A stretch of 64,000 bases of DNA from an archaeon (GCA_018657065.1 JABHXU010000016.1:6333-70332); one strand, 5' to 3'. Positions 28,058 through 47,488 are shown, numbered from the stretch's first letter. The notes: a model not told the origin generated them from the letters alone. Program-made: numbers and translations.

Positions 28058-28178
28058 AAAACTTAATAAACTCTCGTCTATTTAAAGAGAGTGGGGGAAA
28101 TAATGGATACAGCTCAAGCTCTTATTTATACGCATATCCCGTACCTATTTGTTCTTATTTACATTATCTATGAGATAA

Positions 28179-28379
28179 TTGCAATTAGAACATTATTTGT
28201 TAAAATTAGAAAAAAGGTGGAAAAATATGATTAGTACAACATGGTCAATTATTCTAACTCAAATACCTATAGCCATAGCAATTGTGTACGCTGTAATTGA
28301 AGTTAGGAAAACAAAAAAAGAATTATTAAGAATATTAGACAAATTAGCTGATAAGGTTAATGAAAAAAACAAAAAATGA
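28179..28379 (+). CDS. Small membrane peptide(s) upstream of the carbamoyltransferase (the true start is probably the ATG at 28227: MISTTWSIILTQIPIAIAIVYAVIEV...; a second 42-aa hydrophobic ORF lies at 28104..28232)
   Basis: Hydrophobic mini-ORFs. The stop overlaps the next gene's ATG (ATGA). Confidence 0.3.
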   Translation: MQLEHYLLKLEKRWKNMISTTWSIILTQIPIAIAIVYAVIEVRKTKKELLRILDKLADKVNEKNKK

Positions 28380-30073: not shown

Positions 30074-31815
30074 TTATAAGAATAATTCTAGGAATTATGT
30101 ACCTTTTCTTAACATTATATTTAGGATCATCTTTTTCAAAAAAATATTTTAAATTAAAAGGGCTCAAAAGTGTTGTTTCTGGTTTTATTTGTTTGAATTT
30201 TATTATTGCTTTTATTGCTTTTATGCTTGCGATTATATTTGGTTCAAACATCAATTTTCTCAATACTTTAATTTCTGTTCTAATAGTATTTTTGTCCATA
30301 CGTGAACTCCCCAAAATAAGATTTAAAAATATTCTAAAAGAAATTTTGAGAAATAAGATAATCTTAATATTTTCAATTCTAATTTTTGTTATTTATTTCT
30401 TTAATTTTTCAGGTCCTTTTTTAGGTTATTGGGACACATATATAGCAGCTCCTTCAATTACTATGGCAGGAACACAATTAAATTTTGTTGATATTAACAA
30501 TGAAACATTATATAATTATACACTTTTACAAAAAATACCTAATGATTTGATTAATAAAAAATCTTATGGAATAATTTCTAAAGATCAAAGAATAAGTAGT
30601 GGAATTTTAATGTCTGTTCCTTTTCTATTTTTTGGAATATTTGGATTTAGATTATTTTACTCTTTTTTTATTGTAAGTGGTTTTTTTATCTTATATTTCT
30701 TAGTAAAACTAATTACTAAGTCCAAAACAATTTCACTAATTGCATCTGCACTATGCTATATGAATGGATACATCTTCTCGATAAACACCTTAAATCCAAA
30801 TTTATTTGGAATGATTCTATTAACTTTGATAATCTACCTCTCTTTATTAAATGTTAAAAATTGGTTCATTATAGGTTTACTTTTTGGAATCCTAGGAAGC
30901 ATTAGAAATATTGCTATAATTTTTTCGTTTGGAATGTTTTTTTATTTAATTACAGAAGAAAAATCTATTAAAAAAATTACAATATTTACTCTAGCTACAA
31001 TATTAGGAATAATTCCAATTTTATATTGGAATAATTTTGCCTTTGGAAATATGTTCATGCACTCATCTCAATATTCTTTTTTTGAAGGTTATAGACCTGA
31101 ATTTTCTCATAACATTTTTAATCTAAAATTTATGTTTAATGGTCTCTTTAATTTTCCTTTAAATAATGAAATTATTAGAACTCCTCATTATACTTATCCA
31201 GTTTATATTTACCTATTTTTACTATTAAAAAAAACATTTGGATTATTTTTAGTATTTCCTATTTTAGGTTATTTTAATTTTTATAAAAAAAACAAAAGAA
31301 ACACTCTTTTTATTGGACTACTTTTTATTCCTCTTTTCTTATTACTCTCGTTTCAAGAAAATTGGGAAGTAGCTAAAACAAGTTTTATTTTACTTTGCTT
31401 CCCTCAAATCATAATTTTTTTATCAAAAGGTTTGGAAGAATTGAAAAAAAATTGGCTAAATCCAATATATCACACTAAACTCGGAATTTTAATTATTATA
31501 CTAGTTTTAATATCTACTTTTACAATATCTCAAAATTACGAACTAGACCAACGATGGTACGAAAGATTTCCTAAAGCCGCAGCAGATTCTTACAACAAAT
31601 ATGAAAACAAAATTGATTTAGATGAGTTTAAATTTTTTCAATCAAAAGAAACAATTAAAGAACTAAATTCTCAAAAAGAATTTCTTGATAAAACATATTT
31701 ACCTTTTTTAAAAATGCCATCAAAAAATAGAATTAATATTTCAAATGAATTAAAAAAAGAAAATATCAATGTATTTGTAATTTGGAAATACATTTATGTA
31801 GATATTAAAAACTAA
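30070..31815 (+). CDS. Polytopic membrane protein (about 12 TM), GT-C/ArnT-like, translationally coupled (ATGA) to the carbamoyltransferase
   Basis: 581 aa. The first large loop carries YWDTYIAAPSITMAGTQLNFVDINNE, a weak resemblance to GT-C first-loop acidic motifs. Confidence 0.45.
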   Translation: MIIRIILGIMYLFLTLYLGSSFSKKYFKLKGLKSVVSGFICLNFIIAFIAFMLAIIFGSNINFLNTLISVLIVFLSIRELPKIRFKNILKEILRNKIILIFSILIFVIYFFNFSGPFLGYWDTYIAAPSITMAGTQLNFVDINNETLYNYTLLQKIPNDLINKKSYGIISKDQRISSGILMSVPFLFFGIFGFRLFYSFFIVSGFFILYFLVKLITKSKTISLIASALCYMNGYIFSINTLNPNLFGMILLTLIIYLSLLNVKNWFIIGLLFGILGSIRNIAIIFSFGMFFYLITEEKSIKKITIFTLATILGIIPILYWNNFAFGNMFMHSSQYSFFEGYRPEFSHNIFNLKFMFNGLFNFPLNNEIIRTPHYTYPVYIYLFLLLKKTFGLFLVFPILGYFNFYKKNKRNTLFIGLLFIPLFLLLSFQENWEVAKTSFILLCFPQIIIFLSKGLEELKKNWLNPIYHTKLGILIIILVLISTFTISQNYELDQRWYERFPKAAADSYNKYENKIDLDEFKFFQSKETIKELNSQKEFLDKTYLPFLKMPSKNRINISNELKKENINVFVIWKYIYVDIKN

Positions 31816-31816
31816 A

Positions 31817-34573
31817 ATGAAAGCAAATAAATCAAATTTCAAACTAGATAACTTAAATCTAATTTTAAGTTTCTTATTTTTGATTGGTGGGATTTGTTTT
31901 ATAGTAATATTTTATAATAATATTTTTGACATTACACCTACAAAATACTCATGCAATTCACAATATTTTAATTCTAATAATCCAGATGAAATTTTTAATA
32001 TTAGTGAGTGTTATTTAAATAATAGTGAAATAAATCAGTCAATAGATGTTCTTAATAATGCAATTAAACACGGTGTAATTAACTTAGATATTTTTTTAAG
32101 TTTAGCAGGTCAATATTATGAACAAGTAGATTTTGATTCAGCAAAAAAAGTATATGAATATGCTAAAAAAGAATATCCTAATAGTCCTAGACTATATGAT
32201 AAAATTGGTAATTTACATAAAAGTTTAGGCTACAAAAATTCACTTGAATTTGAGAAAGCATTAGAAGCATATCAAAAAGCAATTAATTTAGAACCTAATA
32301 ATCCACAACATTATGAAAACTTAGGTATAGTTTATTCACAACTTAATGAACCTGAAAAAGCTAATTTTACATTCATTCAAGGAAAAGAAAAAAGTAGTTA
32401 TAACTACTCGTTTTATTTAGGTTGGAGTGAATATTATCGATCAATAGGGAATTATAAAAAATCTAATGAATATTTAAAAAAATTAGTTGATTCAAATCCA
32501 AATATTGCTCATTATAAAACTGAACTTGCAAGAAATTATCTTATTGAAGGAGAAATAGAACTGGCTAAAGAATATTATTCTAAAGCAATTGATAATGGTT
32601 GGTCACTTCCTACATATAATTGTCCTTATGAAGGACTAGGATTAATTTATTATATGGAAGGAAACCATGAAAAATCTGAAGAATATCTTAAAAAATCTAT
32701 AGCACTAAATCCAAAAGTTAGTGATTTAAATCGTCGTGCCTTAGCTAATCTATATGTTTCACAAAATAGAACTAATGAAGCAATATCAACTTTAAATTTA
32801 TTGATAAACTTAACTTATTTAGATTATGAAAAAAATAAAATTGAAAACTATATTAACCAATTAAAACAAGGAAAAAAACCTCACATTGATTTAGGACCTC
32901 TTGAAAAAGAAAATTTTGCGGATATAGCTCAAGAATCTAATAAAATGTTCTTTGAAGGTGAAAAAAAACTTAGAGATGGAGATTATGAACAAGCTGAAAA
33001 AAAGTATATTAACTCATTAGAATTAAATCAACTTCACGAATATAGTTCAATGCGATTATTATATTTATATTTTGCAATTTATGGTAATAAACAAAAAACA
33101 CTTAATTTATTTGAAGAATACTCTGCTACATTTAACTCTGACACAAAAAATACCTTTAAAAGTCTTATTTATCTTGATTCGAACAATATTTTAAAAGCCA
33201 AAAAACACTTAGATTTAATCTCAAATCACTCTGATTTGTCCTATTTACCATTAGGTGAATATTACTTAGAAACAGGTGAATATAAAAAAGCATATGATTG
33301 TTTTGAAAGGTCAATAGATCTCCGTCCTTTAGATGCTTTTGATTATTTTGAAATCTATAAAATAGATCGAATTTTGAGAGCAATAATCAAAGTAAAACAA
33401 TATGATTTAGCATATGATTTCATAGAAAAAATTAATTCACTTTCTGATAAATGGTTCTATCATAATAAAGCTATTGAATTAAAAATTCTCGAATCAAAAG
33501 GATATATTGCACTCAATAACAATAATTTTACTGAATCTGAAAATTATTTTAATGAATTAAAAGAAAAAAATCCTGTTATTGGATGTTCCTTTCAAGGACT
33601 AGGAGTATTATATTCTAAAACTCAAAAATACACAGAATCAACTATTAATTATATAAATGGAGCTGATCTAACACCTTATAGTTCAAGGGATCAATTTTTA
33701 GCAGCTTATTCTTGTTTTTTAACTGGAGATTATAATTGCGCAAATAAATATGTTGATAAAGCGATAAATCTCAATGATAATATTGAATATTTGGAATTAA
33801 AAGGATTTATCCTTATTATGGAAAATAAACCTCACGAAGCAAAAGTTATTTTTGATAAAATTCTAAGGGAGAAAGAATCAATAATCGCAAAATCAGGTTT
33901 AGGACATATTGCTTTAATTAACAAAAATTACACATTATCTAAACAAATATTTGAAGAATTACTAAATCAAAGTTTAAAAAACTCTTATGACAACATACAT
34001 ATTGATTATAATTATATGTATGAAACCGTGCCTTTAGGTTTAGCCTGGTCATATTCAAATCAAAACCAACATAAAGATGCTTTAGAATATTATGATATGA
34101 TTCTAAATAAAACTCCTGACCACCTTTTAGCTTTAATTAGCAAGGGAAATGCATTACTCTGGTTAGAAAGATATGATGAAGCTAAAAAAATATTTGATTA
34201 TATACTAAAATTGTATCCAAATAATGAATATGCACTAGCTGAACTAGGTTTATTAGAATATAATTTAGGAAATTTAACTGAAGCTCAAAATAAATTTAAT
34301 CAAGCTCTTGAACAAAACAGTGAAACATATACTTGTCCTTATGAAGGTTTAGGTCTTGTTTATTATAAACAAGGAAATTTAGATTTAGCAAAAGAAAATT
34401 TTGAAAAATCAATTGAAATAAATCCAGATATTGAATATAAAAAATTCAATTTGCTTGCAAAAATTTATATTGAAGAAGGAAGAAGGAAGGATGCTAAAAT
34501 TCTTTTACTAAAATCTATTGAAAACTATCCATATGATCCTGAAGCAAAACTGCTTTTAGAACAAATTAGCTAA
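31817..34573 (+). CDS. Membrane-anchored TPR-repeat protein (918 aa) with internal duplication
   Basis: An N-terminal TM helix is followed by more than 15 TPR-like repeats. The motif Y-x-C-P-Y-E-G-L-G-L-[IV]-Y occurs twice (near 32620 and 34330). Confidence 0.75.
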   Translation: MKANKSNFKLDNLNLILSFLFLIGGICFIVIFYNNIFDITPTKYSCNSQYFNSNNPDEIFNISECYLNNSEINQSIDVLNNAIKHGVINLDIFLSLAGQYYEQVDFDSAKKVYEYAKKEYPNSPRLYDKIGNLHKSLGYKNSLEFEKALEAYQKAINLEPNNPQHYENLGIVYSQLNEPEKANFTFIQGKEKSSYNYSFYLGWSEYYRSIGNYKKSNEYLKKLVDSNPNIAHYKTELARNYLIEGEIELAKEYYSKAIDNGWSLPTYNCPYEGLGLIYYMEGNHEKSEEYLKKSIALNPKVSDLNRRALANLYVSQNRTNEAISTLNLLINLTYLDYEKNKIENYINQLKQGKKPHIDLGPLEKENFADIAQESNKMFFEGEKKLRDGDYEQAEKKYINSLELNQLHEYSSMRLLYLYFAIYGNKQKTLNLFEEYSATFNSDTKNTFKSLIYLDSNNILKAKKHLDLISNHSDLSYLPLGEYYLETGEYKKAYDCFERSIDLRPLDAFDYFEIYKIDRILRAIIKVKQYDLAYDFIEKINSLSDKWFYHNKAIELKILESKGYIALNNNNFTESENYFNELKEKNPVIGCSFQGLGVLYSKTQKYTESTINYINGADLTPYSSRDQFLAAYSCFLTGDYNCANKYVDKAINLNDNIEYLELKGFILIMENKPHEAKVIFDKILREKESIIAKSGLGHIALINKNYTLSKQIFEELLNQSLKNSYDNIHIDYNYMYETVPLGLAWSYSNQNQHKDALEYYDMILNKTPDHLLALISKGNALLWLERYDEAKKIFDYILKLYPNNEYALAELGLLEYNLGNLTEAQNKFNQALEQNSETYTCPYEGLGLVYYKQGNLDLAKENFEKSIEINPDIEYKKFNLLAKIYIEEGRRKDAKILLLKSIENYPYDPEAKLLLEQIS

Positions 34574-34574
34574 A

Positions 34575-35684
34575 ATGAAAAAAAGAAAAAAAAACAAATT
34601 ATTGTTGATTGGAAGTTTAATTTTTTTAGGTCTATCAATCTTGCTATTTATATTTGGTTCATTAAATAATTTAGATGATAATGAACAAAATATTTCAATT
34701 TTAAAGAAATCTTCAATTGAATACTACAATTCAAAAAAATATTATGCTTTTGTTGAAACTAATAAAAAAATAGCTAGCTTAACACCTAATAATTCAAGTC
34801 ATCAATTTATTGCATCATATTCTTGTTTTATTATTGGAGATTATTTTTGTTCAATGGAATATGTAAATAATGCTCTTGAACTAAAAAATGATATTGCTTA
34901 TTTAGAACTCAAAGGGTTTATCTTAAACTTACAAGAAAAACCAGTTGAAGCAAAAGAAATATTTCAAGATATTTTAAAAGAAAGTAATTCAACTCTTGCA
35001 AAAATAGGTATTGGACATATTAAATTGCAAGAAAATAATTGTATACAGGCAAAGGAAATTTTTTTTGAATATAATTATCAAACAAATATAAAAACAGTAA
35101 TATTTGATAAGATTAATTCTGATTACCTTAGCCAGATGAACTCGCTTGGAATAGGTTGGTGTGATCTTGCAAATAATGACTTTGAAAATGCTCTTAAACA
35201 ATTTGATAAAATTCTTGACAATAATCCGGATCATTTACTTGGCATTATTAATAAAGCAAATACCTTAAGATGGTTAAAAAAATATAATGAAGCTAGAGAT
35301 ATTCTTTTAGATGGTCTAAAAATTTACCCAAATAGTGAATATATGTATGGTGAATTAGGTTTAATTGAACAAGAGTTAGGTAATTTAGACCAAGCAAAAA
35401 AATATTTTAATCAAGCACTTAGTAATAATAATAATACTTATTCTTGCCCTTATGAAGGACTAGGATTAATTTATTTTATGGAAGGAGATAATGAAAAAGC
35501 AAAGGAACATCTAGAAAAATCTATTGAAATAAAACAAAATTTAGATTTTGAAAAATATAATACTCTAGCTAAAATTTATATTAAAGAAGGAAAAATAACT
35601 GATGCTAAAATACTACTTTTAAAATCACTTGAAAATAATCCCGAGGGTATTGAAGCAAATGAATTATTAAAAAATATTTCTTAA
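34575..35684 (+). CDS. Membrane-anchored TPR-repeat protein (369 aa), paralogue of the C-terminal third of the upstream TPR protein
   Basis: It shares the blocks AYLELKGFIL, DNNPDHLLGIINKAN and YSCPYEGLGLIYFMEG...AKILLLKS with the 918-aa protein. Confidence 0.75.
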   Translation: MKKRKKNKLLLIGSLIFLGLSILLFIFGSLNNLDDNEQNISILKKSSIEYYNSKKYYAFVETNKKIASLTPNNSSHQFIASYSCFIIGDYFCSMEYVNNALELKNDIAYLELKGFILNLQEKPVEAKEIFQDILKESNSTLAKIGIGHIKLQENNCIQAKEIFFEYNYQTNIKTVIFDKINSDYLSQMNSLGIGWCDLANNDFENALKQFDKILDNNPDHLLGIINKANTLRWLKKYNEARDILLDGLKIYPNSEYMYGELGLIEQELGNLDQAKKYFNQALSNNNNTYSCPYEGLGLIYFMEGDNEKAKEHLEKSIEIKQNLDFEKYNTLAKIYIKEGKITDAKILLLKSLENNPEGIEANELLKNIS

Positions 35685-35879
35685 GAAGTTTTTAATTGTT
35701 TCTTCTTTAAATCATTAATTAAATCATTGCAATAAATTGTAAATGTTTTTGAAATTCTTTTATATTTTTTATTAAATAAACTTGCAAATATAATAAAAAT
35801 TTTAAACATTAATTGCATTGCTAAAATAAAAAACAGTTTTAGAAGAACTACAAACTTTGAATCTCTTTTTTTCTTATCT

Positions 35880-36665
35880 TTAATATTGCAGCATCCCATT
35901 TTTCTTAAGTAATTTATATGTTTTCAATATTTTATTTTTTTGATCATCAAATTTCAAATTATTATTCATTAAATGTAATTTAATTGTTTTATCAACAAAA
36001 TCAGATTTTCTTTTAAAAAATAACTTAATTTGCTTATCATCATGTTTAGGTTTTTCTCTGAATAAAATATTAGGTAAATAATATATCTCTCCAGCTAAAC
36101 ATTTAGGTTGAATTCCTAAGAATCTATCCATAATTTGCATATAACCCATATTAAATTTTAATTCTTTTAATTTCTTAATCTCTTCTTTTCTTTTTAAATT
36201 ATATACTGGTGTAACAAAAGAAATACCATATTTTTTGTAGAGTTTTCGAATTAATTTAACTGTTATTTCTTTTTGTTCAACCATTTCATTTGTATCCTTT
36301 GAAGATCCATCTGACATTAAAGCAATTCCATTTTCTAAACAATAAATTATACTATATGTATGCATTGCAAGTTTACATCCTAAACACCAAACAAAACCTG
36401 ATTTATGAGTTTTATATTCATTTAAAACATTGTTAATTGTAATTTTTTCAAATAAATCTTTTGAAGAAGATAATTTAAATTTAAATTTGCCTGGAAACAT
36501 ATCTTCTAACTCATTAAATCTGTTTTTTGTTCTGCCTTTGAATAAGTGACCGTATCCATTATTGTAAGTTAGTAAATGTATTTCATCATATTTTTTAGCT
36601 AAAAGATATGCTACCATTGTGGAATCAACCCCACCTGAAAACATTAATGCAATTTTTGATTTCAT
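35880..36665 (-). CDS. PP-loop superfamily ATP pyrophosphatase (QueC/ThiI/LarE/TtuA-like adenylating enzyme)
   Basis: The PP-loop SGGxDS sits in IALMFSGGVDSTMVAYLL. A central Cys cluster is WCLGCKLAMHTYSIIYC. Confidence 0.65.
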   Translation of the reverse strand: MKSKIALMFSGGVDSTMVAYLLAKKYDEIHLLTYNNGYGHLFKGRTKNRFNELEDMFPGKFKFKLSSSKDLFEKITINNVLNEYKTHKSGFVWCLGCKLAMHTYSIIYCLENGIALMSDGSSKDTNEMVEQKEITVKLIRKLYKKYGISFVTPVYNLKRKEEIKKLKELKFNMGYMQIMDRFLGIQPKCLAGEIYYLPNILFREKPKHDDKQIKLFFKRKSDFVDKTIKLHLMNNNLKFDDQKNKILKTYKLLKKNGMLQY

Positions 36666-36676
36666 TTTTATCTCAA

Positions 36677-38083
36677 TTAATTAAAAATAAGTTCTTTAAA
36701 TCCATTAAATACTGAGCGTAAAATCGGCTTATATGTTTTATGTTTAATTGTAAACCTTATTAGATTCATTAAATATTTTGGTCTTAAATAAAAAGATCTT
36801 TCTAAATCCTTTTTTAATTTCATAAGTTCTTTTTTTGATAAATTTTTATTTTCCATTGTAATATTTTTTAAAAAAATCATTTTTGACCAATTATCATCTA
36901 TTTTTAATTTATTTTTATTGGCATACATTTCCAAATCTGTGCCTGGATAAGGTGTTGCAAAAGAAACTTGTAAGAAATCTGGATCCAAATCAAGAACAAA
37001 TTTTTTTGTTTGTTTTATTGTTTCTTTTGTTTCAAGTGGCATATTTAAAATAATGAAACCTAATGTTGGTAAACCAACTTTCTTTGATAATCTAAATGCC
37101 TTTTTTATTTGATCTTTTTTTAATCCTTTTTTAGAAAAATCAAGTATTTTTTGTGATCCTGATTCTATTCCAAACTCAATTTTCATACATCCTGAATTTT
37201 TCATATGTTGAAGCATTTCTTCATTAACATTATCTACTCTTGTTAAACACATCCAAGTTATTTTTTTATTAAGAATTGAATTCATAATTTCGTCACAAAA
37301 CTCATGTACCCACTTAATATTAGTTGTAAAAGTATCATCTAAAAAAGAGAAATGTCTTGTTCCATATTTTTTATAACACTCAATCATTTCTTGAACAATA
37401 TTTTTTGAACTTCTTCTTCTAATAGTTCGTCCTGAAAAAAAAGGAACAGCACAATAATTACATTTAGCATAACAACCCCTCATAGCAATGATCGTTGTAA
37501 AATGATTTGAAACTACAGACCTATACTTTCTCATAGGTAACAAATGCCTCGCTGGAAATGGTAATAAATCTAAATCATTTATGTAGCCTTTATACTTGTT
37601 TAATTTAATTGATTTTTTTTGTCTATACGCTATCCCATTTATCTTTAAGAGAGATTTATTTTGAAGAATACTCTTAATTAAATCTGAAATTATTCCTTCA
37701 CCTTCAAATAACACAACAATATCAAAAAAATTAAACCTCTTTAAAGTGTCTTTAGGTAATGTACTGGCATGAACTCCACCAATTAAGATTTTTACTAAAG
37801 GTAATATTTTTTTTATTTCTTGAGCTAAATTATGAACTTGATTAATTGTTGGAGTAACTGCAGAAAGACCTATAATTCTAGGTTTAATTTTCTTAACATA
37901 AGTTAATATCTCATTTTTACTTAAACCTAAAGCATTTGCATCCAATATTTTTACTTTTACATTCTCTTTTTCTAAAACTGCTGCAAGGTATCCTAATCCC
38001 AGAGGAGGTCCTACTGTAATTTGAGAAATAGATTTAATTTTACTTTGAAAATTTAAATTTATAAATAATACCTCAGTTTTCAT
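36677..38083 (-). CDS. B12-binding-domain radical SAM enzyme
   Basis: The B12-binding N-domain (VKVKILDANALGLSK...IIGLSAVT) is followed by the rSAM motif MRGCYAKCNYCAVP. Its start overlaps the upstream rSAM gene by 11 nt. Confidence 0.8.
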   Translation of the reverse strand: MKTEVLFINLNFQSKIKSISQITVGPPLGLGYLAAVLEKENVKVKILDANALGLSKNEILTYVKKIKPRIIGLSAVTPTINQVHNLAQEIKKILPLVKILIGGVHASTLPKDTLKRFNFFDIVVLFEGEGIISDLIKSILQNKSLLKINGIAYRQKKSIKLNKYKGYINDLDLLPFPARHLLPMRKYRSVVSNHFTTIIAMRGCYAKCNYCAVPFFSGRTIRRRSSKNIVQEMIECYKKYGTRHFSFLDDTFTTNIKWVHEFCDEIMNSILNKKITWMCLTRVDNVNEEMLQHMKNSGCMKIEFGIESGSQKILDFSKKGLKKDQIKKAFRLSKKVGLPTLGFIILNMPLETKETIKQTKKFVLDLDPDFLQVSFATPYPGTDLEMYANKNKLKIDDNWSKMIFLKNITMENKNLSKKELMKLKKDLERSFYLRPKYLMNLIRFTIKHKTYKPILRSVFNGFKELIFN

Positions 38084-39377
38084 TTTTTAATATTTTTAGT
38101 GTAGATTTAATTCCTGAAATTATCATTGTTGGAAAATACTTAATACCCATGATACTAACTATCCGAACTATTGTTTTTATCATATTTAAATTAAAGTAAA
38201 AATGTTTGTATGCTTTATTTTGGTATTTTTCAAGGTTAAGATTTTTATTAACTTGATTTTTATTATAGTGGATATTTGAAAACTTATTTTTCTTATTTTT
38301 AAAAAATTCAAATAATGCAGATCCTGGAAAAGGTGTTGCTATGTAATAAAATGCAAAATCTAAACCAATTTTACTTGATATTTTAATATTTTTAATTAGA
38401 TTCTTGTTGGAATCTCCAGGAAGTCCTAAAATAAAATGTCCAAAACTAAGTATTCCAGACTTATTTGTAATCCCAATTGTATGTCTTATTTTATTTGCAT
38501 TTATTCCTTTTTTTGATTTATTTAAAATATTTTGGTTGAAATTTTCTATACCATAAGAAATCATATAGCAACCTGATTTTTTCATTAGTTTTAAGAGATT
38601 TTCATCAACACTATCAATTCGAGAATTACACATCCAATTAATTTTAAGATTTTGTTTAATAATTTCATTACAAATTTCAATTACATAATCCTTGTCAAAT
38701 GTAAATATTTCTGAATAAAAAACAATCTCATCAATTCCTAATTTTTTAATGGCTTTTATTTCTTCAATTATACTCGTTACTCTTTTTTTCCGATATTTTT
38801 TACCATAATAAAATGGAGCTGTACAAAAAATGCAAGAATAGGGACACCCTCTTGAAGTTTGAATAAGTAAAAAAGATTTATTTTTAATTGGTAATTTATA
38901 ATTCTTTATTTCAACTAAGTCCCAAGCTGGAGTAGGTAAATCTTCAAAAGAAAAATTTTTTCCAATTAATTCATATGCAATTTCTTCAGGTTCCTTTGAT
39001 AATAAAATAATATTTTTCCCATACTTTTCATTTGAAAAATATTTTGCATGTACTCCATATACATAGAATTTAGTTGTTTTTGATATTTCTGATAATTGTT
39101 TTGTTAAATTAATATCATTTTCAAATGTTGGTGTTGTTGTATTTATAAAAACAATTTTAGGATTTTGGTTCTTAAACAATTGAATAATCCTTTTTTCATT
39201 AATCTTTTGAGCTATGCAATCATATAGCTTAATATCAAATTTTCGTCTTAAAATAGCTGCTATTTGAGCCATAGAGAGTGGTGGATATGTTGTATCAAAC
39301 AATGATGTTTCTTGTTCACATCGTCCTTCTTTAATAAAGTCCTTCTTATATGGAGGACTTAATACCCACACCACCAT
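38073..39377 (-). CDS. B12-binding-domain radical SAM enzyme
   Basis: The rSAM motif is SRGCPYSCIFCTAP, preceded by a B12-binding-like N-domain. Confidence 0.8.
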   Translation of the reverse strand: MVVWVLSPPYKKDFIKEGRCEQETSLFDTTYPPLSMAQIAAILRRKFDIKLYDCIAQKINEKRIIQLFKNQNPKIVFINTTTPTFENDINLTKQLSEISKTTKFYVYGVHAKYFSNEKYGKNIILLSKEPEEIAYELIGKNFSFEDLPTPAWDLVEIKNYKLPIKNKSFLLIQTSRGCPYSCIFCTAPFYYGKKYRKKRVTSIIEEIKAIKKLGIDEIVFYSEIFTFDKDYVIEICNEIIKQNLKINWMCNSRIDSVDENLLKLMKKSGCYMISYGIENFNQNILNKSKKGINANKIRHTIGITNKSGILSFGHFILGLPGDSNKNLIKNIKISSKIGLDFAFYYIATPFPGSALFEFFKNKKNKFSNIHYNKNQVNKNLNLEKYQNKAYKHFYFNLNMIKTIVRIVSIMGIKYFPTMIISGIKSTLKILKNEN

Positions 39378-39414
39378 TCATGACTAAAAGAGATTTTTAT
39401 TAATATAAATTTCC

Positions 39415-39681
39415 TTAAATCCCACTTAATAAATATACAAAAAAATAATAAACATAAATTGACAAAAAAAGTAAAAATACTCCTTCTCCAAGCATTATTT
39501 TAATGTCAATAGATTCTTTTTTCTTATAATTCATTATGCAAATCACGAAAAGGGAAAAAAACATAATAAAAGCAGGATAACTAAATGATTTATTTTGAAT
39601 TTTTGGATTTAAATAAATTAAAAGTCCACTAATTAAAAACCCAATTGAAGAAAAAAAGGACCTAAAAAATCTTGTTTTCAT
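39415..39681 (-). CDS. Small membrane protein (88 aa)
   Basis: Three hydrophobic helices; weak evidence. Confidence 0.3.
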   Translation of the reverse strand: MKTRFFRSFFSSIGFLISGLLIYLNPKIQNKSFSYPAFIMFFSLFVICIMNYKKKESIDIKIMLGEGVFLLFLSIYVYYFFVYLLSGI

Positions 39682-40406
39682 TAAGTTTTAATAATACAAT
39701 TTATTATAAAAAGCTTATGATTAGTGAGTTTATTGATTTTTTAAAATTTGAATCAAGATTTGGATTACGAGTCTTTATTATCGATTTAATAGCAATAAAT
39801 AAATTATATTTTAGAAAAATTTATCTAGATAAGTTACTAAATTTAGCTGCAAAAGATAATCTAAAATTTACTTTTTTTGTTAGATCTTATAATTTAAAAA
39901 ATAAAAAATATTTAATCAAGAATCTTAAAAAAGGAGGTCATGAAATAGCTTCTCATGGGCATAGTCATGTTTTATATAACAATAAGTCTAAATTTTGGAT
40001 CCAAAATGAACTAAAAAAATCTCAAAAAGAGTTCAAAAAAATGGATATTAATGTTAAAGGTTTTAGATCCCCATTTTTATCTGAAAATAAATTATTGTAT
40101 GATGTATTAGATGAACTTAAATTTACATATTCTTCAAACAGATTTAAAAAAAATAAAATCAAAACAAAAATTAAACAAGCCTACATGATATATCCCTCTG
40201 ACTGGCATGGTCTTATAGTAGAAAATTGGAGTATTGAAAAAATCATTAAATCATGGAAAGATCAAAAAGGAACTTTAGCACTTCATCCTTGGATCTTTGT
40301 AAAACATTATAATAAATTAAAATCAATTATTGGATCTCAAAAAGACTTAACTATAATAAATAATTTGAAAAAAGAAAACCTGAAAATATCTTTTGATGTA
40401 TATTAA
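39672..40406 (+). CDS. Polysaccharide deacetylase (NodB-homology/CE4) family protein
   Basis: FTFFVRS...GGHEIASHGHSHV...GFRSPFL matches the CE4 motifs (TFF, H-x-x-x-H, R-x-P-Y). Confidence 0.7.
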   Translation: MFSLSFNNTIYYKKLMISEFIDFLKFESRFGLRVFIIDLIAINKLYFRKIYLDKLLNLAAKDNLKFTFFVRSYNLKNKKYLIKNLKKGGHEIASHGHSHVLYNNKSKFWIQNELKKSQKEFKKMDINVKGFRSPFLSENKLLYDVLDELKFTYSSNRFKKNKIKTKIKQAYMIYPSDWHGLIVENWSIEKIIKSWKDQKGTLALHPWIFVKHYNKLKSIIGSQKDLTIINNLKKENLKISFDVY

Positions 40407-41160
40407 AATGAAAACTACTTTAATAATTCCAGCATATAATGAAGACCCTAAAATCTTAAAACAAATAGTTAAAAAATCAAAAAAATATGTTGACAAAATT
40501 ATAATTATTGACGATGGATCTTCAAAAAATATTAAAATAGATTGTACGATAATTAAAAACATAAAAAATAAAGGTAAAGGGTTTTCAATAAGAAAAGCAA
40601 TAAAATTTGTTGGTAAATCTGATATTATTATTTTTATGGATGCTGATAATGAACATGATCCTAAAGATTTGCCAAAATTTCTTAATAAATTCAAATCAAA
40701 TAAGTTTCAAGGATTAGTGATTGGAAAAAGAAGACAATATAGATCTCCACTAAGAAAAATTCTAAATAATTGGATGAATTTTTGGATTGGATTTATTATT
40801 AAAAAAGCAGATTTTTCCTGTGGATTTAGAGCAATTGACATAAGTTCTCTAAAAAAATTTAATTTAAAATCTAATAGATTTGAAATAGATCTTGAAATGA
40901 TTCTAGAAAGTTACCTAAATAAAATAAAAATTGTATCTATAGATATTAATCATAAACCTGTTAAAAAATCTCATGTGAAATTTATTGATTATATTAAACT
41001 CAATAATTTTTTTGATAGGTGGATTTTAAAAAATCATTCTAAATTAAATATTCCATTATTAAAGAAAATGTTTTTAATGTTTTTTTCTGTTATTGGATTA
41101 ATAATTGGTTCAATAGTATATTTAACTTACTCCATTTTTAACTTAGCAACAAGTGGGTAA
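40393..41160 (+). CDS. Family 2 glycosyltransferase, dolichyl-phosphate sugar synthase-like
   Basis: TLIIPAYNEDPKIL and IIIDDGSSKN form the GT-A DxD region, and IIIFMDADNEHDPKDLPKF is a DPM-synthase-like motif. There is a C-terminal TM anchor. Confidence 0.85.
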   Translation: MMYIKMKTTLIIPAYNEDPKILKQIVKKSKKYVDKIIIIDDGSSKNIKIDCTIIKNIKNKGKGFSIRKAIKFVGKSDIIIFMDADNEHDPKDLPKFLNKFKSNKFQGLVIGKRRQYRSPLRKILNNWMNFWIGFIIKKADFSCGFRAIDISSLKKFNLKSNRFEIDLEMILESYLNKIKIVSIDINHKPVKKSHVKFIDYIKLNNFFDRWILKNHSKLNIPLLKKMFLMFFSVIGLIIGSIVYLTYSIFNLATSG

Positions 41161-41981
41161 TGATCTGACCCAACACAGTCATACAAAACATCACAAAAAG
41201 TTGGTTTAAGATTTTTAACAAAGATCCAATCTAACCGCTGCCTAACATGAATTCCTAAAGGAACAAAAAGTTTTCTAAATGTTGTAGCACCTTTCATAGT
41301 TGGACTAACATTGTTTTTAATGTCACTAGTCCAATACTTTCCTCTTGGCAATTTAACATCAATAAATCCTTTACCTAATAGGTTTAAGAACTGTTTTTTA
41401 TGAGCCATAAGTTTCTTTTTTGAAAAATTAGCTAAACCTACAGTATTCATGTCACCACAAAAAATTTCATAATCTACTTTTTCTTTAAAATGTGACAATA
41501 TATGTTTTATTTTCTTTTTTTTATATTTCATATTGCCAATAATTTCTAAATGTGCATTTGAAATTCTAATTGTTTTTTTATTAGGTAATTCATAAACCGT
41601 AGATATTACTCCAAATATTGCACTTTCAGTACAAATATATTTATGTGGATTAAATGGACCATTTATTGTTGGAAGTTCAACTCTAGTTTCATTTAACTTT
41701 TTTAAATTCGAAAAAGATCCTAAACCAAGTCTATCACATGTAACTTTTGGATAAATGTAGAAGCTTCCCTTTAATTTAGGAAATAATGATTGAAATTTCT
41801 TTTTCATATCTTTATTTTCATCTGTATTTCTAAGTTCTTGAAAATTAAAAAATTGATAATTTGTATTTTTACTCAATTTTTTTATATTTTCAATGGAATC
41901 ATAAACTTTATTATCAAAGCCCATTAGAATATTATACGTTGAAACAAAAATTTCCTTACTCATCACTCTAAAAAAAATCAT
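41127..41981 (-). CDS. Endonuclease/exonuclease/phosphatase (EEP) family hydrolase
   Basis: The C-terminal RLDWIFVKN and GSDHYPLVAKL match the EEP motif (S-D-H-x-P-V). Confidence 0.7.
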   Translation of the reverse strand: MIFFRVMSKEIFVSTYNILMGFDNKVYDSIENIKKLSKNTNYQFFNFQELRNTDENKDMKKKFQSLFPKLKGSFYIYPKVTCDRLGLGSFSNLKKLNETRVELPTINGPFNPHKYICTESAIFGVISTVYELPNKKTIRISNAHLEIIGNMKYKKKKIKHILSHFKEKVDYEIFCGDMNTVGLANFSKKKLMAHKKQFLNLLGKGFIDVKLPRGKYWTSDIKNNVSPTMKGATTFRKLFVPLGIHVRQRLDWIFVKNLKPTFCDVLYDCVGSDHYPLVAKLKME

Positions 41982-42048
41982 GATATAATTAAATCTTTAG
42001 GTTATATTCTAAGAAAAATATTTATACTTAGATAATTCATTAAAAAAT

Positions 42049-42660
42049 ATGAAAAAAGAATCAATTAACCCATACAAAATTGCTGCAATTGGTGGAACTT
42101 TACTAATATTATTACAGATTTTTCGTATATTTGCTAGTAGACTACAACTTGTTGATCTAATGTATCCTGGAACTTTAGCAACTGTTACCATGAGTTTTGC
42201 ATCTCTTATTATTAGTGTAATGCTCTATTATGGTTATATTTACTTTGGAAAACAAAATAATAATATTTTAATGGTTATTTCTTCAATTCTTGTTATTTTC
42301 TCTTTAGTTGTAAGTTCATCTTTTACCTTGCTAACTTTTTTGTTTCAGAAATTTACTAGTACGGGACTCTTTAATAATCCTTTTTTAATGATGGGTAGAT
42401 TCCTTAACTTTTTTTCAATATTCTACATTTTACTTGGTGCTTCAATAATTTTATCAAAAAAAGAATTAGGAAATCTTGGCCTTGTAACAGGTATTATTAT
42501 TATTATTGATTCATTTTTAAGTTTAAGTTATATGTTTATTTTTCCAATATATCCAAAATTTATCCAAATAAGCTATATAATGTTCTACTTATTTTATATT
42601 GAAAAAATACTTCAAATTTTTTTATTTTATTTTTTATCTACTAAAAAAGGACTCCATTAA
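42049..42660 (+). CDS. Polytopic membrane protein, unknown function
   Basis: 203 aa with 6 hydrophobic helices. Confidence 0.4.
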   Translation: MKKESINPYKIAAIGGTLLILLQIFRIFASRLQLVDLMYPGTLATVTMSFASLIISVMLYYGYIYFGKQNNNILMVISSILVIFSLVVSSSFTLLTFLFQKFTSTGLFNNPFLMMGRFLNFFSIFYILLGASIILSKKELGNLGLVTGIIIIIDSFLSLSYMFIFPIYPKFIQISYIMFYLFYIEKILQIFLFYFLSTKKGLH

Positions 42661-42693
42661 CTTCTTAAATACTTTTTATTTTAGAAAAAAAGT

Positions 42694-43437
42694 ATGTTAA
42701 CAAATACCTTCATTCATATTCCTTATGTAAGTGAAAACACAGAAAAAAAATTGTGGCAAAATAGTATCAATTGCTGGGATGATTTCTTAAAAATACAACC
42801 TCATGTGAAAAACCAAGATGTTATAACCAAATTTCTTAAACTCTCTAAAGAGCATTACAATAAAAAGAATCATGAATTTTTTTCAAATAAAATTATATCA
42901 AAACACCAATGGAGAGCTTATGAAGATTTTAAAGATAATTGTTGTTTTTTAGATATTGAAACTACTGGACTGAGTAAACATAGAGATGAATTAACTGTTG
43001 TAGGTTTATATGATGGTAAAAAATCAAAAGTTTATATTAAAGGAAAAAATATGAATGAATTTGCAAAAGATATTGCTAAATTTTCTTTTATTGTGACATT
43101 TAATGGGGCAACTTTTGACCTACCTTTTTTAAAAGCAAAGTTTCCAGACGTAGAATTTAATCATCTACATGCTGATTTAAGATTTGTTCTAAGAAGACTT
43201 GGTTATGCTGGAGGACTTAAATCAATTGAAAAAGAATTTGGAATTGCTAGACAATCAGATTTATCTAATTTAAGTGGAAGAGATGCTATCAGACTTTGGT
43301 ATGCATACAAAAAAAAAGGAGATGAAAAAGCACTAGATAAACTAATAAGATACAATATTGAAGATATTGAAAATTTAAAAGTTTTAATGGATCATTCTTA
43401 TACTGAACTTAAAAAAAAGTGTTTAAATTTTTGTTAA
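42694..43437 (+). CDS. RNase-H-fold predicted 3'-5' exonuclease (YprB-like)
   Basis: FLDIETTGLSKHRDELTVVGLY...IVTFNGATFDLPFLK...HADL matches the DEDD-like Exo motifs I-III of the YprB/RNase_H_2 family. Confidence 0.55.
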   Translation: MLTNTFIHIPYVSENTEKKLWQNSINCWDDFLKIQPHVKNQDVITKFLKLSKEHYNKKNHEFFSNKIISKHQWRAYEDFKDNCCFLDIETTGLSKHRDELTVVGLYDGKKSKVYIKGKNMNEFAKDIAKFSFIVTFNGATFDLPFLKAKFPDVEFNHLHADLRFVLRRLGYAGGLKSIEKEFGIARQSDLSNLSGRDAIRLWYAYKKKGDEKALDKLIRYNIEDIENLKVLMDHSYTELKKKCLNFC

Positions 43438-43481
43438 AATTATAGAAAATCTTTAAATATCTCTTTTCAATTACTTTTATT

Positions 43482-44168
43482 ATGCATCACAAACTTCAAA
43501 TTGAACAAGAAACTCAAAGATTTTTTACAAAAGTATTTGGATGGATGTTTTTAGGTCTTTTACTTTCAGGATTTACTGCATATTATGTATCTATTACTCC
43601 AGCCATCTTAGCAATTATTTTTTCAAGCCAAATTGTATTTTTTGGTCTTTTAATTGTTGAGCTGGTTTTAGTTATTAGTCTTTCAGCTTTTATTAAAAAA
43701 GTTAGTGCTACTTTAGCTACATTCTTATTTTTATTATATTCTTTTGTGACTGGATTAACCCTTTCGGTAATATTCTTGGTATATACAATTGAATCAATCA
43801 ATCTCGTATTTTTTATAACTGGAGGAATGTTTGGTTTAATGAGTTTTATTGGTTATACAACTAAAATGGATCTAACAAAATTTGGTCCAATTCTTTTTAT
43901 GGGATTACTTGGAATAATTATTGCCGGATTTGCAAATTTATTTCTTAGAAATTCAATGTTGGATTTTATTGTTACAATTATTGGAGTAATTATTTTTACT
44001 GCATTAACTGCATACGACATTCAAAGAATTAAAAAAACAAATATAATTGGGAATGAAGGGACAGAGGAAGACCATAAAGAAGCAATTATTGGCGCTCTTA
44101 CATTATATTTAGATTTTATCAACCTGTTCTTAAAACTATTAAGACTAACTGGTAAAAGAAAAAATTAA
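43482..44168 (+). CDS. Bax-inhibitor-1/YccA (UPF0005) family membrane protein
   Basis: Seven TM helices, with the characteristic C-terminal region ...TAYDIQRIKK...EDHKEAIIGALTLYLDFINLFLKLL. Confidence 0.75.
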   Translation: MHHKLQIEQETQRFFTKVFGWMFLGLLLSGFTAYYVSITPAILAIIFSSQIVFFGLLIVELVLVISLSAFIKKVSATLATFLFLLYSFVTGLTLSVIFLVYTIESINLVFFITGGMFGLMSFIGYTTKMDLTKFGPILFMGLLGIIIAGFANLFLRNSMLDFIVTIIGVIIFTALTAYDIQRIKKTNIIGNEGTEEDHKEAIIGALTLYLDFINLFLKLLRLTGKRKN

Positions 44169-44175
44169 AGAAAAA

Positions 44176-45360: not shown

Positions 45361-45474
45361 AGAGATTTTCTAATGTTTATTCTAGTATTTAAATTTTGAG
45401 AAAGATACATTAATTTTCACATAGTTATTTATGAAACAAAAAAGTTTTTATACTCTTTTAACAAAAGAAATTTT

Positions 45475-45690
45475 ATGGCAAAAAAATCAGAAACAAAAAA
45501 ACAAGAAGTTCTCGAGCATAAAAAAGAAGTTCTGCTTAAAGGAATTGGCCTTCATCTATTAACTTATCTTGTCATTTGTATAATCTTATTATTAATTGGC
45601 GTTCCATTATACATCGCAGTTATGCTTTTTATGGTATTAATTTGGGGATTATTTGTTTTAAGCTACGCACTAGTTAATAAAAATAAATAA
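45475..45690 (+). CDS. Small membrane protein (71 aa)
   Basis: A KE-rich N-terminus is followed by two TM helices. Confidence 0.3.
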   Translation: MAKKSETKKQEVLEHKKEVLLKGIGLHLLTYLVICIILLLIGVPLYIAVMLFMVLIWGLFVLSYALVNKNK

Positions 45691-45704
45691 AAATTCTTTT
45701 TTTA

Positions 45705-46946: not shown

Positions 46947-46979
46947 ATAAAATTCTTAGAGAATAATGGTATATAAATG

Positions 46980-47414: not shown

Positions 47415-47488
47415 TTGTGAAGGTACAATTATTTTATATTTAAATCTATTACAAAAATTATTTATATTTTCAATTCCTTATTTAGTTC

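Follow-up and report, generated by a model that had tools for sequence, protein, structure and literature searches.

A YcfA-like PP-loop enzyme with a predicted three-cysteine metal site, encoded with class-B-type radical-SAM enzymes in a gene island recurring in archaea and bacteria

The window analyzed here, a 64,000-nucleotide stretch of archaeal DNA (GC content, ~25%), carries on its minus strand an operon of five translationally coupled genes. These encode an 88-amino-acid (aa) small membrane protein with two to three hydrophobic segments, whose gene (positions 39415 to 39681; called by open reading frame [ORF] and hydropathy) is the probable first of the operon; a 434-aa class-B-type radical-SAM enzyme (38073 to 39377; ORF and Pfam Radical_SAM); a 468-aa B12-binding radical-SAM enzyme (36677 to 38083; ORF, Pfam B12-binding and Radical_SAM); a 261-aa YcfA-like PP-loop ATP pyrophosphatase (35880 to 36665; ORF, SGGVDS motif, and family profile against the PDB); and a 72-aa small membrane protein beginning MGCCNIKDK (35681 to 35899; an ORF conserved in relatives). 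The 88-aa ORF sits 37 nt upstream of the 434-aa gene, the two radical-SAM ORFs share 11 nt (38073 to 38083, ATGAAAACTGA), 11 nt (36666 to 36676) separate the 468-aa gene from the PP-loop gene, and the start of the 72-aa ORF overlaps the 3' end of the PP-loop gene by 20 nt. By our own arithmetic at this GC content, any given codon would be a stop with a probability of ~0.088 and a chance open frame of at least 434 codons has a p of ~1e-17, ruling out chance for the ORFs. The 88-aa ORF matched no Pfam or NCBIfam family; at locus L092, a similar 103-aa ORF (7981 to 8292) precedes the orthologous radical-SAM gene in the equivalent place. The original prediction had described a co-translated operon of three genes, the radical-SAM pair and the PP-loop gene. 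Its ORF coordinates, 11-nt overlap, and 11-nt gap were all reproduced, with the genes co-directional on the minus strand and forming a single translationally coupled unit, but two more co-directional, conserved ORFs (88 and 72 aa) had been overlooked.

The PP-loop protein carries SGGVDS at residues 10 to 15, within an SGGVDST (residues 10 to 16) that is invariant across its family, and cysteines at positions 94, 97, 109, and 189; the predicted C-x2-C...C cluster is seen as C94-x2-C97...C189. In its AF2 model (pLDDT 93.7; strand 3 to 7, then helix 12 to 22), an SGGxDS/T motif follows the first strand, and every fold match is a PP-loop enzyme, argininosuccinate synthetases included, placing the protein in the PP-loop ATP pyrophosphatase superfamily. 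The nearest solved relative by both profile and fold is YcfA: the family profile matched it in the PDB with an E value of 1.8e-24 (runner-up QueC, 3.9e-5), and Foldseek aligned the model to it with TM scores of 0.74/0.87 and an rmsd of 2.1 Å, against ~0.5 for QueC. YcfA is the thioamide synthase of the YcfA-YcfC 6-thioguanine pathway of Erwinia amylovora (PDB 9KQ6/7/9/D). A cytosolic enzyme with GTP as its substrate, it activates an amide carbonyl by adenylation and exchanges oxygen for sulfur; it binds free L-cysteine via R18, Y128, and Q129, its cysteine/GTP residues are R18, Y128, Q129, and K169/K180 with Glu134 as general base, and its activity needs a two-layer heptameric (double-heptamer) assembly (PMC12494993). 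The two proteins are 20% identical. In the HMM alignment, YcfA D19, E134, and Q135 fall on the invariant D14, E130, and Q131 of the PP-loop family, R18 falls on Val13, and Y128/Q129 fall on a conserved Asp-Thr. The comparison strongly supports the view that the window's protein is a YcfA-like adenylating enzyme in which the Asp of the PP-loop and the catalytic Glu and Gln are retained. YcfA further resembles the family in its partner, the product of a nearby gene, a PLP enzyme with the cysteine-desulfurase fold; in the bacterial PP-loop homologues that enzyme is a true SufS. Unlike the PP-loop family, YcfA has neither a membrane partner nor radical-SAM neighbors.

Other assignments fared poorly when the protein was classified with profile HMMs. 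In Pfam it matched DUF7411 (30 bits) and QueC (29 bits, just above its low domain cut-off). QueC itself was rejected on a TIGR00364 score of 31.3 bits against a cut-off of 150, spanning residues 7 to 38 only, and on the TM score of ~0.5; MnmA reached 17 bits against an NCBIfam cut-off of 237. TtuA, NcsA, and TtcA were set aside because there was no ATP_bind_3 match (E ≤ 0.01), there were no Zn-finger segments, and the folds superposed with a TM score of 0.39 to 0.47 and an rmsd above 13 Å. No LarE model appeared among the NCBIfam and Pfam matches, and LarE, with a fold TM score of 0.42, has the Cys layout alone in common. With scores far under every NCBIfam equivalog cut-off, the protein does not belong with the housekeeping tRNA or queuosine enzymes. 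The family is rare: among 1.84 billion representatives it forms 648 clusters at 50% identity (64 at E ≤ 1e-30).

The cysteines set this family apart from YcfA, which lacks the CxxC...C (LLGEK versus WCLGCK) and whose cysteine-binding set R18/Y128/Q129 is replaced by Val/Asp/Thr. Cysteine covariation was computed over 187 non-redundant homologues. C97 and C189 were present in 187 of 187; the third cysteine lay at position 94 in 139 and at position 184 in the other 48, never at both and never at neither. This pattern strongly supports a model in which the free-cysteine site of YcfA has been replaced by an obligatory, predicted three-Cys metal site with the layout of the [4Fe-4S] enzymes LarE and TtuA, although the site could hold Zn, as in QueC, instead of an Fe-S cluster. 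In Thermotoga maritima LarE, C92, C95, and C172 ligate the [4Fe-4S] cluster and IscS is the sulfur source (PMC9283937); the spacing resembles C94/C97/C189 here, as does the CxxC...C layout of TtuA, NcsA, and TtcA. The [4Fe-4S] PP-loop insertases use ATP to adenylate a carbonyl or carboxyl that is attacked by cluster-bound sulfide, with sulfur supplied via a cysteine desulfurase. The window's protein is not a member of their sequence families (no ATP_bind_3 or LarE match; fold TM 0.4 to 0.5), its 261 residues lack the Zn-finger domains of TtuA and NcsA, and its gene context suggests a substrate other than their tRNA or nicotinic-acid nucleotide.

Both radical-SAM proteins fall in B12-type (class B) families and are predicted to bind cobalamin. 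The 468-aa protein matches Pfam B12-binding (81 bits) and Radical_SAM (77 bits) and has its CxxxCxxC at C204/C208/C211. The 434-aa protein has C178/C182/C185 and matches Radical_SAM (68 bits); its own copy in the window has no Pfam B12-binding match, but 10 of 13 orthologues do. It aligns with its 468-aa paralogue at 30% identity from residue 29 through the N-terminal domain, hhalign pairs the two families over full length with a probability of 100, and an R-C-x-Q motif near the N terminus is invariant in the 434-aa family. Its N-terminal region is accordingly best described as a putative diverged B12-binding-like domain, and the original assignment of both enzymes to class B holds. Named functions are another matter. 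The 468-aa protein scored far short of the NCBIfam cut-offs for HpnJ (224 bits versus 578), BchE (217 versus 481), AprD4 (120 versus 500), and PhpK (126 versus 600), as did the 434-aa protein for its best matches, HpnJ (147 bits) and BchE (138 bits), and equivalog identity was rejected. AprD4, the radical-SAM diol dehydratase of apramycin C3'-deoxygenation (PDB 6FD2), acts on an amino sugar and is the nearest solved relative of the 468-aa family profile (E = 6.5e-47), in a match that spans the radical-SAM core alone (profile positions 163 to 398). To our knowledge, the N-terminal domain of AprD4 does not use cobalamin.

The operon sits in a ~17-kb gene island (24.5 to 41.2 kb) that recurs, with shuffled gene order, in DPANN-type archaea, Myxococcota, Omnitrophota, and Planctomycetes. 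At its far edge lies a third class-B-type radical-SAM paralogue (441 aa; 24485 to 25810, minus strand), 31% identical to both operon enzymes over nearly its full length and matching HpnJ at 212 bits. The remaining genes are on the plus strand. A 722-aa polytopic membrane protein (25889 to 28057), with ~12 transmembrane (TM) segments and a C-terminal soluble domain by hydropathy, has no Pfam or PDB match; it recurs beside the carbamoyltransferase at six loci (L005, L098, L118, L143, L003, and L034), and a bacterial 749-aa paralogue matches both it and the 581-aa protein described below, making it a distant paralogue of that GT-C protein. The 565-aa TobZ/NodU/NovN-type O-carbamoyltransferase (28376 to 30073) matches Pfam Carbam_trans_N and Carbam_trans_C and, in the PDB, carbamoyltransferase 7xb6, NovN, TobZ, and GdmN (E = 1e-62 to 1e-50). 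It is followed by a 581-aa probable GT-C-fold membrane glycosyltransferase (PMT_2/ArnT-like; 30070 to 31815). Pfam PMT_2 is matched by 10 of 17 members of this family, not by the window copy; its YWDTY loop (D122), entered from the preceding TM helix, is invariant, and source records annotate homologues as "glycosyltransferase family 39" and "ArnT-like." Its AF2 model (pLDDT 90.3) has top Foldseek matches that are all GT-C (ArnT, AglB, PglB, ALG12, and Pmt4), but the match is weak (TM ~0.4, E = 1.5e-3). Two membrane-anchored TPR proteins (918 and 369 aa; 31817 to 35684; Pfam TPR) with N-terminal TM segments converge on the 3' end of the operon, and TPR genes flank the PP-loop gene at L006, L009, L011, and L012. 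Beyond the operon, a divergent pair (39672 to 41160; Pfam Polysacc_deac_1 and Glycos_transf_2) encodes a NodB-type polysaccharide deacetylase (244 aa), with translation probably beginning at the ATG at 39717, and a 255-aa Dol-P-sugar-synthase-like GT2 with a C-terminal TM segment and AglJ/PpgS/ArnC-like NCBIfam matches (AglJ, 70 bits). The same divergent layout lies beside the radical-SAM pair at L091/L092 and L155, and at L155 a gene resembling the 441-aa radical-SAM adjoins the deacetylase-GT2 pair.

Conservation around the PP-loop gene was counted over 53 loci with long flanks. Nearby were the carbamoyltransferase in 34, the GT-C protein in 31, the 468-aa radical-SAM in 21, GT2 in 15, and the 434-aa enzyme in just 5. 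Orthologues of the 468-aa protein (35 to 70% identity) are present in 24 PP-loop loci; the 21 long-flank cases (~40%), from archaea and bacteria, lie within 10 kb of the PP-loop gene, and at L009, L073, L094, and L155 the two genes are directly adjacent. This recurrence supports the shared pathway originally proposed, for the 468-aa and PP-loop enzymes, and the reverse scan from the radical-SAM enzyme recovered the same neighbors, about half of the long loci having a PP-loop gene no more than 10 kb away. A search for the three genes as a unit, however, found no fixed cassette, the carbamoyltransferase and GT-C protein being the steadier PP-loop neighbors. Nor is the trio self-contained: in its closest relatives the linkage of radical-SAM pair and PP-loop gene varies, with the pair 5 to 7 kb away at L011 and L012 and followed by a TPR gene in place of the PP-loop gene at L091/L092, and the unit lies within the ~17-kb cluster. 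Because the radical-SAM enzymes are missing from ~60% of PP-loop loci and from 22 of 22 of the C184 subfamily, we regard them as accessory to the PP-loop step, not obligate.

The small membrane protein is the dedicated and most constant partner of the PP-loop enzyme. The 72-aa "MGCC" protein has a single hydrophobic segment and a basic C-terminal motif. In 62 of 86 loci, an M(x0-4)CC ORF is placed -49 to +93 nt from the stop codon of the PP-loop gene, and in 2 more it lies slightly beyond; with ~10 loci (~12%) that have a homologue without CC, the partner is found in ~74 of 86, and those ~12% indicate that the Cys-Cys motif is not essential to the family. At L066 and L143 it is fused to the N terminus of the GT-C protein. 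That the small protein works with the PP-loop enzyme and tethers it to the GT-C glycosyltransferase is strongly supported. Sulfur supply is visible in bacteria: in ~20 loci the next gene after the PP-loop and small ORFs, on their own strand, encodes a bona fide SufS cysteine desulfurase (E = 1e-77), and 14 loci have NifU-like genes. Of the 26 loci of the subtype defined by C94 plus "CCN," to which the window's protein belongs, 19 contain SufS; no cysteine desulfurase or NifU gene was found within the window. The original guess of TtuA/LarE-like sulfur insertion fits the YcfA-like fold, the obligatory CxxC...C site, and the SufS gene directly downstream in bacteria.

The island also recalls two lipid-linked sugar pathways, HpnI-HpnK-HpnJ (hopanoid head group) and ArnC-ArnD-ArnT (lipid A aminoarabinose), with which it shares GT2-deacetylase logic. 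In both, a GT2 places an (N-acyl) amino sugar on a lipid and a deacetylase or deformylase follows; HpnJ performs a B12-type radical-SAM rearrangement and ArnT a GT-C transfer across the membrane. HpnJ is the best NCBIfam match of all three radical-SAM paralogues, though far under its cut-off, and by fold the 581-aa protein matches ArnT best. As far as we know, archaea have neither hopanoids nor lipid A, and we know of no PP-loop enzyme, carbamoyltransferase, or TPR proteins in the Hpn and Arn pathways.

We put at about even the chance that the cluster is a membrane-bound pathway modifying a polyprenyl-phosphate-linked sugar by ATP-dependent, Fe-S-mediated sulfur insertion; no published description of the cluster was found. 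We infer every chemical step. The GT2 would load an amino sugar onto polyprenyl phosphate, and the deacetylase would unmask the bound amino sugar. Decoration would come from the carbamoyltransferase and class-B radical-SAM enzymes, through C-methylation or a rearrangement like that of HpnJ or AprD4. The PP-loop enzyme would adenylate an amide or carbamoyl carbonyl and swap oxygen for sulfur, the sulfide being borne on the open iron of its cluster. In bacteria, the Cys-Cys at the N terminus of the small protein may relay sulfur from SufS; in the window's archaeon, free sulfide is a possible source. The GT-C enzyme would finally move the product to an extracellular acceptor. The originally proposed order, sequential radical modification and then ATP activation, stands as conjecture.

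An unlikely but plausible alternative is that the PP-loop enzyme is an amidotransferase in the same membrane glycan pathway, which the glycan context also fits. Its analogues would be the WbpG/PseA-type N-acetyl-sugar amidotransferases and argininosuccinate synthetase: once an N-acetyl or carbamoyl carbonyl had been adenylated, ammonia would be added, giving an acetamidino or guanidino-type sugar, with the three cysteines as a structural Zn site as in QueC. QueC is indeed the second-closest relative, argininosuccinate synthetases occur among the fold matches, and no sulfur-mobilizing gene lies nearby in the archaeal window. The nearest characterized relative, however, yields a thioamide; the CxxC...C spacing is that of [4Fe-4S] LarE/TtuA and not the four-Cys Zn site of QueC; and the bacterial SufS and NifU-like genes point to sulfur. 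Nor was a glutaminase partner found in the loci examined, and N-acetyl-sugar amidotransferase models were unmatched at E ≤ 0.01.

The strict adjacency and translational coupling of the small ORF, together with its conserved N-terminal motif, could instead mark the "MGCC" protein as the substrate of RiPP-like peptide modification, in which the PP-loop enzyme activates a backbone carbonyl beside the Cys-Cys (thioamide or heterocycle) and class-B radical-SAM enzymes C-methylate the peptide. We consider this improbable. The motif is at the extreme N terminus without a leader peptide, the protein is membrane embedded and twice fused to the GT-C glycosyltransferase, ~10 loci retain it without Cys-Cys, and no RiPP-typical protease or exporter was seen. 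SPASM-type radical-SAM genes occur in about one-third of loci, but the class-B radical-SAM genes are absent from most loci; similarly, the 468-aa enzyme matches the RiPP radical-SAM ApyD at 184 bits against a cut-off of 750, and the RiPP C-methyltransferase models that it also matches are likewise far under cut-off. Least probable is incidental adjacency, with a divergent housekeeping nucleoside/tRNA thiolase or QueC-like enzyme next to radical-SAM enzymes of an unrelated pathway. JGI/NCBI automatic annotations do call homologues "QueC," "TilS/MesJ," or "subunit of tRNA methyltransferase," yet the weak Pfam/NCBIfam matches to QueC, MnmA, and ThiI are 5- to 20-fold under cut-offs and mostly confined to the PP-loop N terminus. 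The rarity of the family is unlike that of a housekeeping enzyme, the YcfA GTP-binding residues are not kept (R18 is Val), and linkage to the carbamoyltransferase, GT-C, and radical-SAM genes is conserved across phyla in both search directions.

The three genes originally singled out act together, as part of a larger uncharacterized cluster, common to tiny archaea and several bacterial phyla, that seems to build a chemically unusual, membrane-linked sugar, probably one containing sulfur.

Three minus-strand open reading frames (ORFs) lie where the original prediction had placed them, at 38073..39377 (434 aa), 36677..38083 (468 aa), and 35880..36665 (261 aa), separated by the 11-nt overlap and the 11-nt gap that it had described. 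The GC content of the window is ∼25%, which corresponds arithmetically to a random-codon stop probability of ∼0.088, and because stops are this frequent, ORFs of 260 to 470 codons do not arise by chance. The operon extends beyond the two radical-SAM genes and the PP-loop gene. On the 3′ side, a 72-aa ORF (35681..35899) begins 20 nt within the end of the PP-loop gene and encodes a protein that opens with MGCCNIKDKKKR..., followed by a single hydrophobic segment and a basic tail. On the 5′ side, an 88-aa membrane ORF (39415..39681) has a recognizable counterpart at the same upstream position in the homologous locus L092. The 20 nt at 35880..35899 are dual coding, specifying the PP-loop C terminus (...NGMLQY and stop) and, in another frame, MGCCNI of the small protein. 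A GML(QY) tail recurs in the archaeal homologs P0003, L005, and P0068 and is probably a by-product of conserved gene overlap. The listed TTG start (39672) of the neighboring deacetylase ORF overlaps the start of the divergent 88-aa gene; the deacetylase ortholog in L092 starts where the window has an ATG at 39717, so the true divergent intergenic region is only ∼35 nt.

The Pfam matches of the PP-loop protein are marginal (DUF7411, 30 bits, at the N terminus; QueC, 29 bits), and it misses NCBIfam equivalog cutoffs 5- to 20-fold (QueC, 31 versus 150; MnmA, ThiI, and AsnB, ∼16). When a 42-sequence family profile was searched against the PDB, the best match was YcfA of Erwinia amylovora (E = 1.8e-24), with QueC next (3.9e-5). 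An AF2 model (pLDDT 93.7) superposed on YcfA with TM scores of 0.74/0.87 and an rmsd of 2.1 Å, while QueC, NcsA, TtuA, LarE, and ThiI each gave 0.4 to 0.5. Membership in the WbpG/PseA-type amidotransferases was considered and rejected, since no such model matched at E ≤ 0.01. A search of 1.84 billion representatives returned 648 family clusters at 50% identity (64 at E ≤ 1e-30), marking the family as rare. In the 6-thioguanine pathway, YcfA activates GTP by adenylation at the C6 carbonyl and then adds free l-cysteine, after which YcfC, a desulfurase-fold lyase, leaves the thioamide (PMC12494993). Residues aligned with D19, E134, and Q135 of YcfA are invariant in the PP-loop family. The l-Cys/GTP ligands of YcfA, however, are not kept: R18 is replaced by Val and Y128/Q129 by Asp-Thr.

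In place of these ligands stands a tri-cysteine site. C97 and C189 (numbered as in the 261-aa protein) are present in 187/187 nonredundant homologs. The third cysteine is found at position 94 in 139/187, where 184 is not Cys, and at position 184 in 48/187, where 94 is Phe; none of the 187 has it at both positions, and none at neither. Such a compensatory move between 94 and 184, a clean natural experiment, points to a metal site that must have three ligands. The cysteine layout equals that of TtuA and of Thermotoga LarE, in which C92/C95/C172 hold a [4Fe-4S] cluster and IscS is the sulfur donor (PMC9283937).

The 72-aa protein is a recurrent partner. Among the 86 homologous loci with sufficient downstream sequence, 62 have an ORF starting M(x0-4)CC at −49 to +93 nt from the PP-loop stop, and 2 more have one slightly further off; ∼10 loci have a clearly homologous small ORF without Cys-Cys. 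In L066 (Planctomycetia; 10689-12407) and L143 (13381-15102), the small protein, here MGRCCDGKNAYKPI..., is fused in frame to the N terminus of the predicted GT-C protein. With this added hydrophobic segment, two transmembrane segments instead of one precede the YWDTY loop, compared with three in the window copy, which suggests that the hydrophobic stretch of the small protein is a re-entrant hairpin and not a spanning helix. In ∼20 bacterial loci, the PP-loop gene and the small ORF are followed on the same strand by a bona fide SufS/CsdA-type cysteine desulfurase gene (E = 1e-77 to solved SufS), at a distance that matches the small ORF. SufS is present in 19/26 loci of the subtype found in the window (Cys94 with MGCCN), and other PP-loop loci have genes for NifU-like scaffolds and a TrxR-like flavoprotein. 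The window itself contains no SufS, NifU-like, or TrxR-like flavoprotein gene.

The genes around the operon are together those of a polyprenyl-phosphate-sugar pathway, in which the sugar would be loaded, deacylated, decorated, flipped, and transferred by a GT-C enzyme. They include genes for an O-carbamoyltransferase of the TobZ/NovN/GdmN/NodU type (565 aa), a NodB-type deacetylase (244 aa), a GT2 protein with a C-terminal transmembrane segment whose best matches are the polyprenyl-phosphate sugar synthases AglJ, PpgS, and ArnC (255 aa), and two TPR proteins with N-terminal anchors (918 and 369 aa). A 581-aa protein has 12 to 14 transmembrane segments, and its homologs match PMT_2 and carry the names GT39 or ArnT-like; a 722-aa protein is a distant paralog of the 581-aa protein. 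Neither gave anything significant in PDB profile searches, and the window copies match no Pfam or NCBIfam model, so the GT-C assignment rests on homologs and a fold model. The AF2 model of the 581-aa protein, built with database homologs, had a pLDDT of 90.3, and its top Foldseek matches were GT-C enzymes only (ArnT, AglB, PglB, ALG12, and Pmt4), at low TM scores of ∼0.4. The island can be likened to the ArnC/D/T, PpgS/Rv3779, or HpnI/K/J systems.

The 468-aa protein has standard class-B architecture, and the 434-aa protein is its paralog at 30% identity, N-terminal domain included; most orthologs of the latter score for Pfam B12-binding. A third class-B-type paralog of 441 aa (24485..25810) is encoded at the opposite end of the island. 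For each of the three, the HpnJ and BchE models give the best scores, well under cutoff. The sugar diol dehydratase AprD4 is the nearest relative of the 468-aa family with a solved structure, followed by OxsB, TsrM, TokK, and CysS, and the chemistry may therefore be methylation or rearrangement. A second adjacent pair of B12-binding radical-SAM genes (467 and 448 aa) occupies 59800..62578 on the minus strand, 37% identical to each other and 24 to 30% to the first set, so that five class-B-type genes fall within 64 kb; the genome is archaeal, small, and low in GC. An MBL-fold hydrolase gene and a ribulose-phosphate 3-epimerase-like gene (62600..63241 and 63238..63879) come after the pair.

The original prediction treated the two radical-SAM genes and the PP-loop gene as one cassette. 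Their linkage was recovered both in a forward scan (PP-loop family seed against GTDB species genomes; 80 loci) and in a reverse scan (468-aa family seed against metagenomes; 72 loci). Among 53 nonredundant loci whose flanks span 12 kb or more, the PP-loop gene was accompanied by carbamoyltransferase in 34, GT-C protein of the 581-aa family in 31, 468-aa radical-SAM in 21, GT2 in 15, and the 722-aa and 434-aa proteins in 5 each. In the reverse scan, 468-aa orthologs of at least 36% identity almost always adjoined a carbamoyltransferase, GT-C, 722-aa, GT2, or 434-aa paralog gene, and in roughly half of the long loci a PP-loop gene lay no more than 10 kb away. The PP-loop gene comes immediately after the 468-aa gene in L009, L073, L094, and L155. 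The arrangement as a fixed module did not hold up. In L011 and L012, whose PP-loop proteins are 60 to 63% identical to that of the window, the radical-SAM pair is 5 to 7 kb off; in L091/L092 (radical-SAM 67% identical), the pair retains its divergent deacetylase-GT2 neighbors and is followed by a TPR gene with no PP-loop gene; and none of 22 loci of the Cys184 subfamily has a radical-SAM gene. The linkage is therefore genuine, at the level of a pathway in a shuffled island.

PP-loop carriers are Myxococcota ("Deltaproteobacteria"), Bradymonadales, Omnitrophota, and Planctomycetia and, among archaea, Woesearchaeota, Nanobdellota, and Undinarchaeota metagenome-assembled genomes (MAGs); taxon counts based on record titles call for caution, since several "TPA_asm" MAG records (L012, L019, L020, L029, and L065) bear implausible labels such as Enterobacterales, Rickettsiales, and Methanosarcinales. 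Most bacterial PP-loop loci carry two carbamoyltransferase paralogs. Recurrent PP-loop neighbors absent from the window (L001, L003, and other Myxococcota loci) include SPASM/twitch radical-SAM (∼31 loci), MBL-fold hydrolase (29), TrxR-like flavoprotein and a 285-aa unknown (12 to 15), LPG_synthase_TM (13), and UDP-GlcNAc 2-epimerase (9).

The window has archaeal features (archaeal SRP RNA, transcription termination factor FttA, and class I LysRS), and its PP-loop protein has an identical GenBank entry, "hypothetical protein [archaeon]." The SRP RNA (57975..58246), 18 kb from the operon, is the sole Rfam match; neither Rfam nor ARAGORN detected RNA elements within the operon or close to it, and ARAGORN found no tRNA gene in the whole window (1..64000). 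Just past the GT2 gene lie genes for a weakly matched endonuclease/exonuclease/phosphatase-family protein (41127..41981, minus strand) and a 203-aa protein with six transmembrane segments (42049..42660, plus strand); no homolog of either was found in any related locus, and they thus probably mark the island edge.

Beyond the observed anatomy, family assignments, co-occurrence, fusion, and cysteine covariation, we propose that the small protein would hold the PP-loop enzyme at the membrane, beside the GT-C enzyme. There the PP-loop enzyme would adenylate an amide or carbamoyl carbonyl of a lipid-linked sugar, and sulfur would be substituted in via the tri-cysteine site, probably a [4Fe-4S] center. 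The sulfur would come from SufS, probably through the N-terminal Cys-Cys, or else from sulfide, and the class-B radical-SAM enzymes would alter unactivated carbons of the same sugar intermediate. As a whole, membrane-held sulfur insertion combined with radical-SAM action on a lipid-linked sugar seems to us about evenly poised between right and wrong. The main rival, in which the cysteines form a Zn site and the product is an amidine or guanidine, we consider unlikely; a RiPP-like reading is less probable again, and incidental adjacency of the genes is very improbable. A defense role was rejected: PADLOC returned just a generic radical-SAM match (PDC-M51A, 43 to 48 bits) and matched neither the PP-loop nor the small proteins. 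Returning to sulfur insertion, its fullest version is tentative and rather unlikely to hold in every part: a membrane-anchored relay of PP-loop enzyme, MGCC partner, and SufS, with B12 radical-SAM enzymes and carbamoyltransferases, would yield a thioamide- or thiocarbamate-bearing, C-methylated or rearranged polyprenyl-phosphate sugar that is exported by GT-C to the surface. Horizontal transfer would account for the sharing of this system by DPANN archaea, Omnitrophota, Planctomycetes, and Myxococcota/Bradymonadales.

The component enzyme classes are already known, and PP-loop sulfur insertases serve tRNA, cofactors, and a few antibiotics. We know of none with a membrane glycoconjugate role or a dedicated small membrane subunit, nor, to our knowledge, has any class of thio-modified surface glycan been described. 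No NCBIfam equivalog or PADLOC model covers the cluster, and literature searches for DUF7411, the gene combination, and YcfA homologs found no description of it. What is new is a YcfA-fold enzyme with a predicted Fe-S-type site, by which an Fe-S-type mechanism would be added to those of this newly solved fold; the small membrane protein that is its obligate partner; and a glycoconjugate-island setting with three class-B radical-SAM paralogs, common to DPANN-type archaea and several bacterial phyla. These paralogs, the two predicted GT-C proteins, and the carbamoyltransferase are candidates for new sugar chemistry. The cluster is one of few elaborate biosynthetic islands in genome-reduced DPANN-type archaea, and since it also occurs in Omnitrophota, Planctomycetes, and Myxococcota, recognition or attachment at the cell surface may depend on its product.
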